From: Escherichia virus TH43
Length of the DNA: 64,000 nucleotides
Sequence record: MT446414.1
Direction: 5' to 3' (one strand)
In this document: positions 2,777 to 44,826 of the stretch, one piece after another
Numbering within the stretch: position 1 is the first letter of the stretch
Layout: each line of letters starts with the position of its first letter
The notes under the pieces: model-generated
The model's database searches: none
What the model was told of the DNA's origin: nothing
The model's input: the letters and a program-made list of their open reading frames with translations, nothing else
Translations under genes and position numbers: made by a program

Positions 2777-5700
2777 ACTCTTTAGCTCGAACTCTAACCC
2801 GGAGTTTAGCTTGACGCTTACTTCTCTCCAACTTGTCAGACAGAGAACCACGTTTGACTTTCAACTCTCCCTCGTCATTATACTTCTCCAAGAACTGTAA
2901 ATACTCTTGTCGAGTAGTTGTCTTGTAAGAAGGAATCTTAACATCAGGATTCTCTTCAATCACACGTCTAATCTTCGCTACATCATCCCGCCCTAAAAGT
3001 TTCCCTTTAGCTTGTTCAGCAGTAGAACCAAAGATTTTCTCCAGTGCTCTAGATTTGTTACCACCCGCTGAAGCAGCACCAAGTTTCGCAATAGCAGAGT
3101 AATCGTCAGCACTAAACCAAGCCACTGGATTATCTCCATATTGTTTCTTGTTCTCCGCAGCAGTTTGTAAAGCACGCACAAAGCGACGGTTATTACCAGC
3201 TTTGTCAGCACCATGAACCCTATCTAGAACTTCTGCTACACTAGCCAGCTCCTGCAAGTCTTTCCCTTCGATAAAAGCTTTCTCTGCTTTGTTAGCAAAG
3301 TCATCTTCCTGCTTCTTAATACTTTCCAGTATATCAGAGGAGGCTTGAGACCTTTCATCTTCCGGCAACGCCGAACGAACTTTCTCCATTTCCAACTCTT
3401 CATCCTGAAGTTTCTTCAACTCAGAATCTACCTTCCTAGCATCTTCGATAGCTTTCGAAGTATCTGCATCCACCTCTACCTTCCCATCCATATCACCAGT
3501 TGCCTTAGCAATATCTTTCTCGATTGGTGTCATCTTCTCAAAATCCTTAGCAAACTTTGAAATATCCGATTCAATACGAGAACGAGCATTCTGGTGCTCA
3601 GTAGGAGTCATAGGTTTCTCCAGAAGAGAGTAACGGTTATCCATATAAGAACCTGCAAAGATTTCTGCATCTTCTTTAGGAATCCCTTTATCCTCCATAG
3701 AACGCATCAGGCGCTTATGAATGTCATCACGTTGGCGTTGTATTGCCATGCGATCGTTCTCTGCTTCCTGAGCTTCTTTGAGCTTCTTGTCACGTTGTAC
3801 ACGGGAATCAATGTCGTATTTACGGTTCATCTCTTCCGCCTGTTCGTACATCTTATTCCACTTAGCTTCTCGAGCATCTTCTTCCGCTTCAGTGAGACGA
3901 CGCTTACGGTCAATGTAATCACTTTCTGCGTTGTGGATACGTTCGATAATACTACGGAAACGCTCCGGTGGCACAGGAGAGTTCTTATCGTGGTGAGCTG
4001 CTAACTGTTTCAGTGTACGACCTTCCTGAGACTCACGTACCGACTCTGGTAAATCTTTCAACAGGTTCTCCATCTCCGATTTCTGAGCCGCTATAGCTTC
4101 GAGAGACTGTCTTTCTGTCTCTACTGCTGCCTTGGCATCACTACGAGCTTTAGCCCTGTTACGGAGCGTCTCAAGACGTTCTTGACGTGCTTGCAAATGT
4201 TTAGCTGCTGCTTCGTACTGAGAGTTCTTATTAGCTTTGTTGAACATGTTAACTTCACGGTTATATGTGTTAATGAAGCCATCCCATATATCCTTCATCT
4301 GTCCCACTTCCAAAGCATCTTCCCTTCCAGCCTTCTCTGAAGCTTTAAACTTCCCATCTACAAAGTCTTCCATCAACTTACGCATAGCATCTTTTTGAGC
4401 TGGACGTAATGGCTCTGCATCAAGAAGTAAATTGATTTCGCTGTGTAACTCTTTCTTCTGGTCAACCAGCTTAGGAGCATCAGCTTTATCAAGCTTCTTA
4501 TTCTCTGCAAGAGCTTCTTCATACATCCTATTAAATTCATCATCACGTTGTTTCTGATACAGACGTTCAGACCTACGCTTCAGTGAGTCTAGACTAGTCA
4601 CGTTCCCACCAATACCTTTCTCCTCAGCACGTAATGCCTTGGTAGCAATATCAGAAGGTAGACCACGTTCCTTAACCCAATCAGCAAACGAAGAACGAAC
4701 ACGTTGTGACTTAGCAGCAGCAATACCCTGTTGAGAAGCAAGTTGGTTACGAGCCATCTCAGCATGACGTTCAGCATTGTTGGCTTGGTCTTCCTGACGG
4801 ATACGACGCATCAACTCTTTCGGGTCACCTTTATAAGAAAGGAAGTTCTCAGCTGTGGCTTTAGCCTTAGCACCTGCCGTATACAGAGAACGAGCAAAGC
4901 GATCTGCACGATCTTTAGTAGCTTGACGGGCAGCACTTGACATAGCAGCCAGACGCTCTATTCCAGTAGCTGGTTTAACAGGCTCAGGCTCAACCTCAGG
5001 AGCTTTAGGAGCACGGGTAGGTAATGGCTCGGCTTGAACGATAGGCTCCTCAGGAACGCTCTCAGCAGCCTTGCTAGCCTCTTCTGCTTCTTGACGTTTA
5101 CGAGCTTCTGCAACAGCACGACGCTGAGCAACTAAATCCCTTGCGGTAGTAACTGGTTCTTGTGGAACTGGCTCTGGAGTTGGTTCTTCCTGAACCCTGT
5201 TAGCTTCGGCTTCTTGACGTCTAGCTTCAGCTTCCTTCAAAGCACGTCTCTGTGCGACCAAATCACGAGCAGTTAAAGGAGAGGTTTCTGGAGAGGAAAT
5301 TTCTTCCGTCACAGTAGTAGCAGAAGGCTCCCGAACCGGTTCGATTTCCGTGTCATTTTGAGTCTTAAATTTAATGTCATCAACTTCAGGTTCTTTCTCC
5401 ATCGCAGCACGGGCTTCATCAGCCTGAGCACGAGCACGAGTTACTTCCATATCACTACGAGCAAGAGAACGAATAGCTTCACTGTTAGCAGCCTGCTGGC
5501 TTTCACGTTGAGAGCGAGCACGGTCAGAACGGAAACGGTTAAGAACATGCTTAGCAGCACCAAGAGGATTCTTAATCAGAACTGGAGGAGCAGCTTCTTT
5601 AAAACCATCAGCAGTCAGAGAAGTCCAACCACGGTCTTGGTTACTCATTAACTTAGCTGTGTTATTCAGAGTGAAAGCATCTTGGATTGGGTTGAAACCT

Positions 5701-24260: not shown

Positions 24261-24360
24261 AGTGTGTCCTCCTAATTATGTATAGACAAAGAGAGTACAT
24301 TACATATCTCCTTATAAGGGTCTTAAAATGAGAAAAGGCCACCCGAAGGCAGCCTTAGTT

Positions 24361-25479
24361 TTAAGCACCAGATTTAACGGTGTAGGTTTTGAACACTGTA
24401 GAACCTGGGTCAGTTCTCAGGGTTACTTTAGTATCTTCACTAGTGATAGCACCAGAGAGCGTAATTGTTAAAGCATCACCAGAAATGGTAATACTCAATT
24501 TGTCTGCATCTGTGCCTTCTACATCATATACGATAGTTCCTAGTGGAGCACCTTGAGGAACAGAAGCTATGTTAAAAACTCCTGGTTGGCTTGGGTCTGA
24601 GATTGTCAAAGTATCACCAGCTACTGACCCATCAGACACTGCTGAAACAACTAAACCAGTAAGTTTAGGTATTACGTCTTCTATGGTAGAAGTTGCAGTT
24701 ACTGAAGTCTGGGTTTTATGAGTAGCCTTAACAGTTACATTGTCATTCGCTGTATCTGACAAGGTTAACAAGCCAGAGGTAGCATTAACAGAACCGGCAG
24801 CAGTAGGGGTTACTACAAAATTATAGTCACTAGCAGCTGAGCGTTGAACAGTAAACATATCTGTAAAAGCGACACTGTCTCCACCAGATTTTCCAGTAAT
24901 AGCAGCTTTAGCCGCGATAGTTGGAGGCTGAGGGTTGACAACAACGTTAATCACTTTAGTGACAGAAGGTTTAGTAGAAGATTTAACTGTAAGAGTAGTA
25001 CTACCTGCTGCAACAGCAGTTACACGACCAGCAGTTGTTACCGTAGCCTTAGTCGGATCTGCAATTTCCCAAGTAACACCTTGAGGTGCACCAGCAGGAG
25101 ATACAGAAGCAGTCAGATTGGTAGCATCTGGAACAGTTATGGTAAGAGTATCACCAGTTAGACCACCACCAGTTACAGCAATGGAAGCTGGGTCAGGGAT
25201 TGGAGCTTTAATTTCCGAGATAACGGCAGTACCTGATACATCTTTAAGAGTAGCAGTCACTGTAATATCAGCGGTTTGAGGCGAACCCGGAGCAGTGAAC
25301 AGTCCAGAAACAGAAATGGCCCCACCACCGGCTACTGACCAATCGAAGCCTGTAGTAGATGTGGAGCCATCGCTTAGTTCTGCTTCAGCTGTAAACTGTT
25401 GGGTAGCCCCGGTCAGCAGACTAGCCACTGACGCGGGACTAACAGTTACGCTGTCAACTGTTACGCCCCCGCCTTTCCC
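24361..25479 (-). CDS. Ig-like domain ORF, predicted C-terminal extension of the major capsid protein via -1 frameshift
   Basis: Thr/Ser/Val-rich Ig-like repeats; frame overlaps the capsid gene 3' end by 90 nt; no ATG or Shine-Dalgarno near its 5' end; slippery heptamer sits in the overlap. Confidence 0.55.
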   Translation of the reverse strand, partial: GKGGGVTVDSVTVSPASVASLLTGATQQFTAEAELSDGSTSTTGFDWSVAGGGAISVSGLFTAPGSPQTADITVTATLKDVSGTAVISEIKAPIPDPASIAVTGGGLTGDTLTITVPDATNLTASVSPAGAPQGVTWEIADPTKATVTTAGRVTAVAAGSTTLTVKSSTKPSVTKVINVVVNPQPPTIAAKAAITGKSGGDSVAFTDMFTVQRSAASDYNFVVTPTAAGSVNATSGLLTLSDTANDNVTVKATHKTQTSVTATSTIEDVIPKLTGLVVSAVSDGSVAGDTLTISDPSQPGVFNIASVPQGAPLGTIVYDVEGTDADKLSITISGDALTITLSGAITSEDTKVTLRTDPGSTVFKTYTVKSGA

Positions 25480-26519
25480 GCAGCGGTGAACAGTACACCA
25501 GAAGCATACGGGTTGCGGTGACGCAGACCAACTTCCATTTCGATCATCCACTTCTCGTAAGAACCATCTTTAGCCAGTTCAGTACGCTTCGGAGCACGAA
25601 GGACCATCTGAGTCCAGTCAGAGCTGCGGAAGAAGTAAACTGCATCAGTAGGCATCCAACGGTTAACGATGATTTTATAGCTCTGACCCAGCGGGTCGGT
25701 GATGCTGTTAACTTCGTAGATGAATTGTTTAGTGTTCTCAAAGATACGCTGACGAGAACCAACAGAGTTTTCCTGCAGCTTAGCAAAAATGCTAGCGTGA
25801 GCAGGGTTAATCATGATGATATCAGCTTCAGAACCTGCGGTATACAGCTGAAGAGTCATATCAAAGATATCTGCTTCATCAAAGCCTACGTTAGTGGTAG
25901 GGTTAGATGCGTTCTGTGCAACTTTAACAGTTACTGCACCGGTATCCGGGTCAGCAGGGCCGTTCTTAGTCTTATCAACAACGCTACCAGACAGACCACC
26001 ATGAGCACACAGGAACTGGAAAGCACCAGTCTTACGAGCTGCATGAGTATCATTCAGACCAGCCAGAGCAGGATCAGCTGCTGAGTTAGTCAGATACTGG
26101 TCAGCCAGAACGTCGGTACGAGCCTGACCGGACAGCAAGATTTTCTCGAGATCACGTTTAATCTCTTTACCTTTCTTCTCCAGCTGATACATCAGTTCAC
26201 GACCACGACCGTAGTTAGCGGTGGTGTTAGCAGTATCAGAAACACGAACTACTTTACGCAGGATCTGAGTTACGTTAGATTTGATAACAGTCGGTTGCAT
26301 TTCACCGTCATCAGCGCGAGAGCCTTCAACGTGTGCGTTGTTAGCATCAACACTTGCCAGTGCATCGGTCTGCCAGCTGAAAATAGTCTGGTTGATAGAC
26401 TCTTTACCAGTCATAGACACAAACGGAGTATCTTGCGGAGAGAGGACAGAAATCCAGTTAGCAAAAGAAAGTTTTTTACCGTTCTGGTCGTAAGATACAA
26501 ATAAAGTTGGATTTGCCAT
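25461..26519 (-). CDS. major capsid protein
   Basis: 352-aa protein directly downstream of the acidic scaffold gene; GGAG upstream of ATG; order terminase-portal-scaffold-capsid. Confidence 0.65.
   Translation of the reverse strand: MANPTLFVSYDQNGKKLSFANWISVLSPQDTPFVSMTGKESINQTIFSWQTDALASVDANNAHVEGSRADDGEMQPTVIKSNVTQILRKVVRVSDTANTTANYGRGRELMYQLEKKGKEIKRDLEKILLSGQARTDVLADQYLTNSAADPALAGLNDTHAARKTGAFQFLCAHGGLSGSVVDKTKNGPADPDTGAVTVKVAQNASNPTTNVGFDEADIFDMTLQLYTAGSEADIIMINPAHASIFAKLQENSVGSRQRIFENTKQFIYEVNSITDPLGQSYKIIVNRWMPTDAVYFFRSSDWTQMVLRAPKRTELAKDGSYEKWMIEMEVGLRHRNPYASGVLFTAAGKAGA
25473..25479 (-). other. candidate -1 programmed ribosomal frameshift site G_GGA_AAG
   Basis: X_XXY_YYZ heptamer in the capsid frame 4 codons before its stop; the -1 frame continues GKGGGVTVD into the Ig-like ORF; nested hairpin immediately downstream (25432-25472). 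Confidence 0.55.
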
Positions 26520-44337: not shown

Positions 44338-44760
44338 TTGAAGATAGAGTTAGAATACCCCTTCGTTAATGACTGGCGATTGGGCTACTTAAGAACAAGC
44401 AGAGACGGTAGGAAGCGTGTTGATTTGTATAATACCGACACGGAGAGGACAACCATTTCTTACGCAAGATATTTAATGTCTTGTCACATAGGCAGGTACC
44501 TAACTGAAGACGAGGAGGTTGATCATATTGACAGAAATAAAACTAATGATGACATATCTAATCTTCAGATACTTTCCATAGAAAATCACAGAAAGAAGTC
44601 AACATTAGAAGCAACTACTGGAAGAACAATGATTTCAGTTGTTTGCTCTTATTGTGGAAGATCTTTTGAAAAAGAAAAGCGAAATGTTAAATATGCAAAT
44701 TCTTTTTGTAACAGATCATGTGCAGGTAAGTATAACGGTTTCAAATCTATCGGGGCGTAG
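44338..44760 (+). CDS. HNH homing endonuclease
   Basis: EVDHIDRNKTNDDISNLQILSIENHRKK is a classic HNH core, plus C-terminal CxxC ... C...C; TTG start with GGAGGGG upstream. Confidence 0.65.
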   Translation: MKIELEYPFVNDWRLGYLRTSRDGRKRVDLYNTDTERTTISYARYLMSCHIGRYLTEDEEVDHIDRNKTNDDISNLQILSIENHRKKSTLEATTGRTMISVVCSYCGRSFEKEKRNVKYANSFCNRSCAGKYNGFKSIGA

Positions 44761-44826
44761 TCTAGTGGAACAGGCAGCGAGCTTCTAACTCGCCTTACGA
44801 GGGTTCGAATCCTTCCGTCCCGACCA
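44751..44826 (+). tRNA. tRNA-Arg (anticodon UCU)
   Basis: Manual cloverleaf: acceptor CGGGGCG/CGTCCCG, D-arm GTCT-AGTGGAAC-AGGC, anticodon arm GCGAG-CTTCTAA-CTCGC, T-arm GAGGG-TTCGAAT-CCTTC, discriminator A, encoded CCA; 76 nt. Confidence 0.8.

Follow-up and report, generated by a model that had tools for sequence, protein, structure and literature searches.

Capsid gene, slippery heptamer and overlapping frame

The window analysed in this work, a stretch of 64,000 nucleotides of Escherichia virus TH43 (MT446414.1), carries on its minus strand a major capsid protein gene and, overlapping its 3' end, a long open reading frame encoding Ig-like domains. The three features of the junction are:

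25461..26519, minus strand: major capsid (head) protein gene, 0 frame, 352 aa, 38.6 kDa
25473..25479, minus strand: slippery heptamer G_GGA_AAG (type X_XXY_YYZ), phased with the capsid 0 frame
24361..25479, minus strand: -1-frame extension, 372 codons from the heptamer, with its stop at 24363-24361

The capsid gene has AGGAG 7 nt 5' of its ATG. Its product matches the Pfam family SU10_MCP (PF17236, E = 2.8e-78), shows about 95% identity to the solved major head protein of phage SU10 (7Z45) and is 100% identical to the capsid protein of Bas88. The ORF ends in ...F T A A G K A G A, followed by the TAA stop at 25463-25461. The AAG of the heptamer is capsid codon 349, four codons upstream of this stop, and GGGAAAG is the sole in-frame X_XXY_YYZ within the entire capsid gene. 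Within the 30-codon overlap, base composition predicts an X_XXA_AAG with a probability of about 0.007, and any X_XXY_YYZ with one of about 0.11. In E. coli, G_GGA_AAG is reported to be highly prone to shifting (PMC5009743).

Upstream, the -1 frame is free of stops as far as 25551, which gives an overlap of 90 nt with the capsid gene. The initial annotation had described this Ig-like ORF (24361-25551) over the last 90 nt of the capsid gene and had placed the heptamer at 25479-25473, in the capsid frame and four codons before the stop; both descriptions agree with the sequence and the translations. A slip at the heptamer leads into a 370-codon open frame and, as had also been stated, the translation from the heptamer on reads GKGGGVTVDSV... 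in the Ig-like frame. The predicted fusion comprises 719 aa and 74.9 kDa, matching the earlier estimate of roughly 719 aa and 75 kDa, versus 38.6 kDa for the capsid protein alone. Its junction sequence would be ...FTAAGK-GGGVTVDSV..., with GGGVTVDSVTVSPASVASLLTGATQQFTAEAELSDGSTSTTGFDWSVAGGGAISVSGLFTAPGSPQTADITVTATLK as the predicted tryptic junction peptide.

Domains of the extension

The extension contains two Pfam Big_2 domains and two further beta-sandwich domains:

25225..25458, minus strand: Ig-like domain 1 (Big_2), residues 8-85 after the slip, E = 7.8e-6, profile positions 2-75 of 79
24955..25164, minus strand: Ig-like domain 2 (Big_2), residues 106-175 after the slip, E = 7.3e-10, AlphaFold2 pLDDT 76-86
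24664..24927, minus strand: third beta-sandwich domain, about residues 185-272, C-terminal end ...VKATHKTQTSVTAT, AlphaFold2 pLDDT 90-96
24364..24657, minus strand: C-terminal beta domain, about residues 275-372, all-beta in the AlphaFold2 model

The first Big_2 domain begins 8 residues past the slip and upstream of the GTG at 25428. The third domain matches phrog_13745, "Ig domain containing protein" (E = 3.9e-48), and is a unit of variable copy number among phages, present once here and three times in Bas88. For the C-terminal domain, mean pLDDT in blocks of ten residues ranges from 65 to 93, with most blocks at 80-90. The AlphaFold2 model of the whole extension resembles arrays of tandem Ig or cadherin domains as well as 9e99_J, a capsid entry of phage N4.

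Start signals and transcription unit

The initial annotation had found neither an ATG nor a Shine-Dalgarno sequence near the 5' end of the Ig-like ORF, and this was borne out. According to the translation, the first in-frame ATG lies more than 200 codons into the frame. Three in-frame GTGs occur within the first 150 codons (25551, 25428 and 25260), none of them with a Shine-Dalgarno sequence, the sole match of the scan being a 4-base TGAT before 25260. Five neighbouring genes have core matches of 4-7 bases, such as AGGAG and TAAGGAG. A scan for promoters and terminators from the capsid stop to the Ig frame found none. One further feature lies directly 3' of the extension stop codon:

24335..24356, minus strand: terminator-like GC hairpin with a T-rich tail

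This hairpin would close a transcription unit made up of the capsid gene and the extension; in SU10 a terminator is annotated at the equivalent position.

Conservation of the junction

The heptamer and its GCTGC context are invariant in 17 Kuravirus-like loci, all distinct sequences taken from phage records, and in 11 metagenomic junctions, while flanking wobble positions vary. The metagenomic junctions come from a scan with the junction motif, which returned these 11 true relatives and 10 chance matches in soil contigs; all 11 fall into 4-5 haplotypes already seen. The heptamer is also present in two Privateervirus loci, despite a capsid identity of 57% and a different C-terminal peptide. Relatives with the same arrangement have a -1 frame without stops over 180-547 codons, with SU10 as the sole exception: in its deposited sequence a 1-nt insertion ends the -1 frame after 13 codons. 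Of the 27 other Kuravirus-like junctions, 26 retain the open extension frame, as does this phage. Synonymous-site conservation, followed through the capsid gene into the first part of the extension (17 unique sequences of a shallow family), does not set the heptamer region clearly above other stretches.

RNA structure downstream of the slip site

As possible stimulators of frameshifting we considered an RNA fold located about 5-9 nt 3' of the slip site, and a Shine-Dalgarno-like motif 5' of it. Reading by eye of the 45 nt upstream of the heptamer revealed no Shine-Dalgarno-like sequence at the spacing found in dnaX, and an Rfam scan of the window returned tRNA only. Two hairpins lie downstream:

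25433..25472, minus strand: hairpin 1, nested, with core UAACAGUU/AACUGUUA (25463-25440) and an outer GCGGG/CCCGC stem
25412..25432, minus strand: hairpin 2, GUCAGUGG-CUAGU-CUGCUGAC

Hairpin 1, whose core includes the capsid TAA stop, had been reported as a nested hairpin (25432-25472) directly downstream of the heptamer. In the sequence of this phage it folds as described (-20.2 kcal/mol, z = -3.6 versus shuffles), but relatives keep its outer stem only in part. This outer stem begins 0 nt from the heptamer, without a spacer, and has one pair broken in 12 of 15 sequences; it was rejected as a conserved stimulator. The 7-bp core UAACAGU/ACUGUUA is invariant in the 15 aligned relatives and lies 9 nt past the heptamer, or 7 nt if the C-G closing pair is counted. 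No covariation was detected for hairpin 1 in these 15 sequences, and the same sequence encodes the conserved peptide VTVDSVTV. The junction RNA of relatives beats shuffles only moderately (z from -1.25 to -2.8), and in one haplotype (Bas93) hairpin 1 is absent from the predicted fold. With upstream sequence included, RNAalifold lets the 5' arm of hairpin 1 pair with an ACUGUU located upstream; this pairing was dropped as a stimulator because a ribosome positioned on the heptamer would have melted it.

Hairpin 2, which likewise forms in the predicted folds, is located about 40 nt from the heptamer. Its covariation is limited to two pairs (UA in seven, AU in four and GC in four sequences; GC in eight and UG in five), its compensatory changes include a silent serine wobble base paired with an amino-acid-changing base, and in 5 of the 15 sequences the two pairs at its top are broken. 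Hairpin 1 may serve as a frameshift stimulator. That the two hairpins form a genuine unit tuning frameshift efficiency, and hence the number of Ig strings per prolate head, is a tentative proposal which we consider rather doubtful. We found no published description of this two-hairpin element downstream of the slip site: the SU10 paper proposes a different stem-loop, which includes the slip site itself (PMC4281155), and the YF01 paper does not mention RNA structure (PMC9965538).

Comparison with related phages and known frameshift systems

That -1 frameshifting can produce capsid-Ig fusions has been known since T3, and reviews on the subject appeared in 2006 and 2016. For the phiEco32-like phage group such a frameshift is already published, so that the fusion, which the initial annotation offered as a prediction, is supported but is not new. 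In 2014 slippage on GGGAAAG was described to fuse the SU10 head protein to an Ig-like domain, "as in phiEco32", and the mass spectrometry of SU10 has a "9+10" entry (PMC4281155). The same slippage was described in 2021 for Privateer, whose virions gave two capsid bands on SDS-PAGE and a minor capsid protein by mass spectrometry (PMC7881722), and in 2023 for YF01 "and other group phages", in a work where SDS-PAGE gave no band for the long isoform (PMC9965538). In cryo-EM of SU10 there was no density for minor capsid proteins (PMC9509320); SU10 is, however, no fair test of the fusion, because the insertion in its deposited sequence ends the -1 frame. Ig extensions made by frameshifting are also described for T3, A2 and Listeria phages (PMC5009743).

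The closest systems are those of the Kuravirus-like phages (phiEco32 gp11/gp12, SU10 CDS9/10, YF01 gp8), with homologous capsid proteins of the SU10_MCP family (94-100% identity), the identical heptamer 4-6 codons before the capsid stop and a Big_2-containing extension in the same -1 frame (compare PMC4281155 and PMC9965538). The window shares with Bas88, phiEco32 and SU10 the gene order scaffold, capsid, Ig, terminator, and the closest of the records searched is 97.9% identical to it. Only the length of the extension differs, with 372 codons here, 180 in phiEco32 and 543 in Bas88; for YF01 the extended isoform is reported as 892 aa in total. Privateervirus (Privateer is a Proteus phage) likewise carries GGGAAAG where its homologous capsid gene ends, with an Ig-like extension in the -1 frame. 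It differs in capsid identity (about 57%), in a heptamer abutting the stop (GGA AAG TAA), in an extension of 171 codons, and in a downstream sequence which, together with any RNA structure in it, is unrelated to that of the window.

The 10A/10B systems of T3 and T7, which are E. coli podophages too, resemble the present locus in a -1 shift close to the 3' end of the capsid gene that gives a minor longer shell protein. Their extension is short, in contrast to the four-domain array found here, and the T7 slippery sequence is G_GUU_UUC, unlike G_GGA_AAG. The capsid proteins belong to different families: the capsid homologues listed were from phiEco32-like, LUZ24-like and other phages, with no T7-like phage among them, and T7 10A/10B is a functional analogue only. 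The analogy to T7 drawn by the initial annotation therefore holds at the level of function, but T3 is the closer analogue because its extension is Ig-like and that of T7 10B is not (PMC5009743). Phage lambda G/GT uses the identical heptamer GGGAAAG and the same E. coli tRNAs (PMC3296357), and here too a -1 shift of low percentage, quoted as about 3.5% (PMC9965538), fixes the ratio of two products. The lambda case differs in being a tail chaperone gene, whose product acts in assembly and is not part of the virion, with no Ig display.

Alternative explanations and proposed mechanism

The Ig ORF could instead be a separate gene started at GTG 25428. Its product would then be a free Ig protein (about 355 aa), acting as a detachable capsid decoration or in another role. 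This is how the GenBank records of all relatives examined present it, with two separate CDSs and none marked as joined; GTG 25428 is the annotated start in the records of Bas88, EK010 and Bas87, and SU10 gp10 has been treated as a possible low-affinity capsid binder (PMC9509320). The annotated starts nevertheless vary by record (11, 32 or 83 and more nt past the capsid stop), as would be expected from the guesses of gene callers. GTG 25428 lies inside hairpin 2 without a Shine-Dalgarno sequence, and a start there would cost the first Big_2 domain roughly its first ten profile positions and its first strand. Also against a separate gene are the frame, which runs on past the capsid stop in every relative but SU10, the invariant heptamer, and the long capsid isoform in Privateer virions, backed by mass spectrometry and SDS-PAGE (PMC7881722). 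Taken together these data make an independent Ig protein very unlikely.

Less likely still is that heptamer and open -1 frame are a relic, with negligible frameshifting and an Ig frame effectively silent, as apparently in SU10. The SU10 capsid, without Ig density and with an interrupted -1 frame (PMC9509320 and sequence), does show that the extension is dispensable for particle formation. A relic is, however, hard to reconcile with 370 stop-free codons encoding four confidently folded beta domains and kept here and in all but one of the other Kuravirus-like junctions, and with a variable-copy domain gained and lost in frame, which points to selection on the protein. Transcriptional slippage by the RNA polymerase would be expected to yield the same protein as ribosomal slippage, and nothing specific speaks for it. 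For productive slippage of this kind, A or T stretches of about 6-9 nt or more are needed, while the only homopolymer runs here are G3 and A3, and X_XXY_YYZ has a conserved phase relative to the capsid frame, precisely the one needed for tRNA re-pairing; we regard this origin of the long product as extremely improbable.

The locus is very probably a programmed -1 frameshift cassette of the capsid gene of a phiEco32-like (Kuravirus-like) E. coli podophage, producing a minor capsid-Ig fusion. This reading is built on features observed here: the heptamer and its phase, the stop-free -1 frame with its domains, the missing start signal of its own and the conservation among relatives; the long product would be found in virions by analogy with relatives, for which it is known from published work. 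We infer the details of tRNA re-pairing, the frameshift efficiency, any stimulation by hairpins 1 and 2, the surface display and the adhesive role. The majority of ribosomes would terminate at TAA (25463-25461) and yield the 352-aa capsid protein. A minority would slip on G_GGA_AAG: the P-site tRNA-Gly, paired with GGA, and the A-site tRNA-Lys, paired with AAG, would each re-pair one base back, onto GGG and AAA, and reading would then go on in the -1 frame to give 719 aa. The fusion would consist of capsid residues 1-349 and four tandem Ig-like beta-sandwich domains (two Big_2, the variable-copy and the C-terminal domain). Since it retains the complete body of the capsid protein, it is expected to co-assemble into the prolate shell. 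The Ig strings would be displayed on the surface in sub-stoichiometric number and would probably adhere weakly to carbohydrates or to the surface of cells.

Significance

Scientifically, the capsid-Ig frameshift in this phage adds no new principle. Its practical value lies in correcting the annotation, from two genes with arbitrary internal starts to one gene with two products; in the records of relatives the extension is labelled "Ig domain containing protein" or "hypothetical protein". Correct annotation is useful for virion proteomics, for structures of prolate podophage capsids and for display scaffolds, and several of these phages are candidates for therapy.

The capsid gene and its surroundings

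The capsid gene and the putative transcript end downstream of it are located as follows:

26519-25461, minus strand, major capsid protein ORF, 352 aa, C-terminus ...FTAAGKAGA*
24356-24335, minus strand, terminator-like hairpin 3' of the Ig extension, annotated likewise in SU10

The capsid ORF belongs to the SU10/phiEco32 family (PF17236, E = 2.8e-78, Pfam), and its product matches the SU10 head protein structure 7Z45 at about 95% identity and the Escherichia phage Bas88 capsid protein at 100%. At the DNA level the region shares 97.9% identity with Bas88 and about 96% with EK010 and E20-1; the source is therefore an E. coli podophage of the Kuravirus-like type (Gordonclarkvirinae). The gene order (portal, small ORF, scaffold, capsid, Ig, virion protein, tail fibre) is the same in the Kuravirus-like genomes compared. 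Bas86 carries an HNH endonuclease gene (4105-4617 of its locus) inserted after the Ig ORF, ahead of the following virion gene, and at that position PAS59 has an ORF of equal size that is not annotated (4762-5274); in the window the gap there is only 100 nt. The sole Rfam or ARAGORN match in the window is a tRNA-Arg gene (anticodon TCT) at 44751-44826 on the plus strand.

The probable slip site and its conservation

A tandem -1 slip at G_GGA_AAG is very probable in this phage. The heptamer lies at 25479-25473, phased with the capsid reading frame, its AAG being codon 349, four codons before the TAA, and the -1 frame runs open from 25551 to 24361 and reads GKGGGVTVDSVTVSPASVASLL... from the heptamer on, both as claimed in the initial annotation. 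The computed product of 719 aa and 74.9 kDa agrees with the size predicted there. GGGAAAG is the only in-frame X_XXY_YYZ of the whole capsid gene, and the base composition gives a probability of about 0.007 for a chance X_XXA_AAG in the 30-codon overlap. G_GGA_AAG is highly shift-prone in E. coli (Atkins et al. 2016, PMC5009743), and the same heptamer is used by lambda G/GT (PMC3296357).

Together with the GCTGC before it, the heptamer is unchanged in 17/17 Kuravirus-like loci (phage records, all distinct sequences) and in 11 further metagenome junctions, while adjacent wobble positions differ; across these loci and junctions, SU10 excepted, the open -1 frame measures 180-547 codons. The Privateerviruses P59 and vB_CsaP_009, with capsids 57% identical to that of the window, have the identical heptamer abutting the stop codon, but differ in the C-terminal peptide and in an Ig extension of 171 codons.

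Other arrangements are found in further capsid relatives. In Lahexavirus-like loci (L009-L012, at about 4412; L017, Aeromonas phage LAh_8, at about 3912), with capsids 59-66% identical, G_GUA_AAG replaces the heptamer and is followed by an open -1 frame of 109-190 codons encoding an Ig-like domain; the arrangement resembles a frameshift site whose P-site re-pairing is imperfect. A GC hairpin, GCGCCC-CUAC-GGGCGU, stands 6 nt past the heptamer in L009-L011, where a C-to-U wobble variant occurs, and the LAh_8 record labels the ORF downstream of the capsid "tail protein". Escherichia phage PJNS034 (L021, at about 3885; capsid 43% identical) carries C_CCA_AAA three codons before the stop, with a -1 frame of 140 codons of Ig-like sequence. 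The 7-11-like relatives SeKF_80, GAP52 and BUCT695 have no frameshift; they encode a short and a long capsid paralogue in tandem, and the long one carries an in-frame C-terminal extension (589 codons in SeKF_80). Their genes thus reach the same product pair by other genetic means.

RNA structure downstream

The nested hairpin proposed at 25472-25432 does fold (-20.2 kcal/mol, z = -3.6). Its core in the window is 8 bp (25463-25440) with the capsid TAA inside, and 7 bp of it, UAACAGU/ACUGUUA, are invariant in relatives. The heptamer is 9 nt from this core and 7 nt from its C-G closing pair. The proposed outer stem, GCGGG/CCCGC, is present in the window but leaves zero spacer and has one pair broken in 12 of 15 relatives. 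No covariation was seen in this hairpin among the aligned relatives and the same bases encode the conserved peptide VTVDSVTV, so its conservation alone is no proof that the structure matters. In the next hairpin (25432-25412) two pairs covary, UA/AU/GC and GC/UG, over about four independent haplotypes only; one of these pairs joins a silent serine wobble to the second base of a Leu/Glu/Pro/Gln-variable codon, and the upper two pairs are disrupted in 5 of 15 sequences. The two-hairpin layout is predicted in four of the five haplotypes (z from -1.25 to -2.8), the exception being that of Bas93. The downstream RNA may plausibly act as a frameshift stimulator.

Upstream, within the capsid coding sequence, ACUGUU(C) (25488-25493) could base-pair with the 5' arm of the first hairpin (25458-25462), to which it is complementary. 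RNAalifold favours this pairing when the upstream sequence is included, and the mRNA around the slip site may thus adopt alternative folds.

The Ig extension and alternative origins of its product

Pfam recognises two domains, numbered in residues after the slip:

8-85, Big_2 domain 1 (profile positions 2-75 of 79)
106-175, Big_2 domain 2

The AlphaFold2 model of the extension, from an alignment of 33 homologues, shows four all-beta sandwich domains in a row and a mean pLDDT of 72.7; values are low in domain 1, because truncation by gene callers thins that stretch of the alignment, and 76-96 over most of the remainder. Structural matches to it from Foldseek comprise tandem Ig and cadherin arrays, S-layer proteins, an RTX adhesin repeat and the phage N4 capsid entry 9e99_J. 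The array differs by whole domains among phages with near-identical capsid proteins. The variable domain, a beta unit of about 86 aa ending ...ATHKTQTSVTAT (24664-24927 in the window), occurs as a single copy in the window and EK010, as two copies in Bas87, EP335 and HC-25922, and as three in Bas88 and Bas86.

An Ig protein initiated independently at GTG 25428, the start in the Bas88, EK010 and Bas87 records, is improbable. This GTG falls 3' of the onset of Big_2 domain 1, so that starting there would lose the first strand of the domain. As had been claimed, neither an ATG nor a Shine-Dalgarno sequence lies near the 5' end of the frame: its first ATG comes over 200 codons in, and no Shine-Dalgarno sequence was found at the three in-frame GTGs of the first 150 codons (25551, 25428, 25260); five neighbouring genes have 4-7 bases matching the core (e.g. 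AGGAG, TAAGGAG). Annotated starts also disagree between records, and the invariance of the heptamer counts against independent initiation. Neither a promoter nor a terminator was detected by the scan between the capsid and Ig frames.

That the Ig frame is a silent relic is still harder to accept, since its four domains are intact and entire domains come and go without breaking the frame. Transcriptional slippage could in principle yield the long product, but the runs at the site are no longer than 3 nt, and we give it hardly any credence. The initially proposed -1 frameshift making a capsid-Ig fusion is supported by the shift-prone heptamer and its invariance, the missing Shine-Dalgarno sequence and the position of domain 1.

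Published evidence and annotation

The capsid-Ig frameshift has been described before in this group of phages and is no new prediction; Mirzaei et al. are among the earlier reports. Privateer has the same heptamer, two capsid bands on SDS-PAGE and a minor capsid protein detected by mass spectrometry, and the minor product is stated to have been observed in phiEco32 and SU10 (Corban et al. 2021, PMC7881722). The two-hairpin RNA with its limited covariation may be the sole part not described before. The suggested analogy to T7 10A/10B holds in part: unlike the Ig-like extension of T3, the classical analogue, that of T7 10B is not Ig-like (PMC5009743).

The deposited SU10 sequence (KM044272; 3623-3700 of its locus) contains one inserted nucleotide about 15 nt past the capsid stop, which closes the -1 frame after 13 codons, a premature end already noted in published work on this group, and its Ig ORF shares frame 0 with the capsid, behind TAA-CAG-TAG. 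This accounts for the lack of Ig density in SU10 cryo-EM (PMC9509320). A "9+10" SU10 product of 55.4 kDa was reported by mass spectrometry (PMC4281155), which, as deposited, is beyond the reach of any single frameshift; the conflict reflects either a sequencing error or differing stocks.

A slippage or join mark is absent from every relative's GenBank record examined, and this presumably made the feature seem unannotated. The start given for the "Ig domain containing protein" varies by record, at 11, 32 or 83 or more nt past the capsid stop, and the records of Bas88 (L001), Bas87 (L028), L025 and others are a systematic misannotation of a published frameshift.

The slip would fuse capsid residues 1-349 to four Ig-like domains. 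As the body of the capsid protein stays intact, the fusion would be expected to co-assemble into the shell, in an amount set by frameshift efficiency. Drawing on the wider literature on phage Ig domains, we infer that these domains may be displayed on the surface and have an adhesive role.
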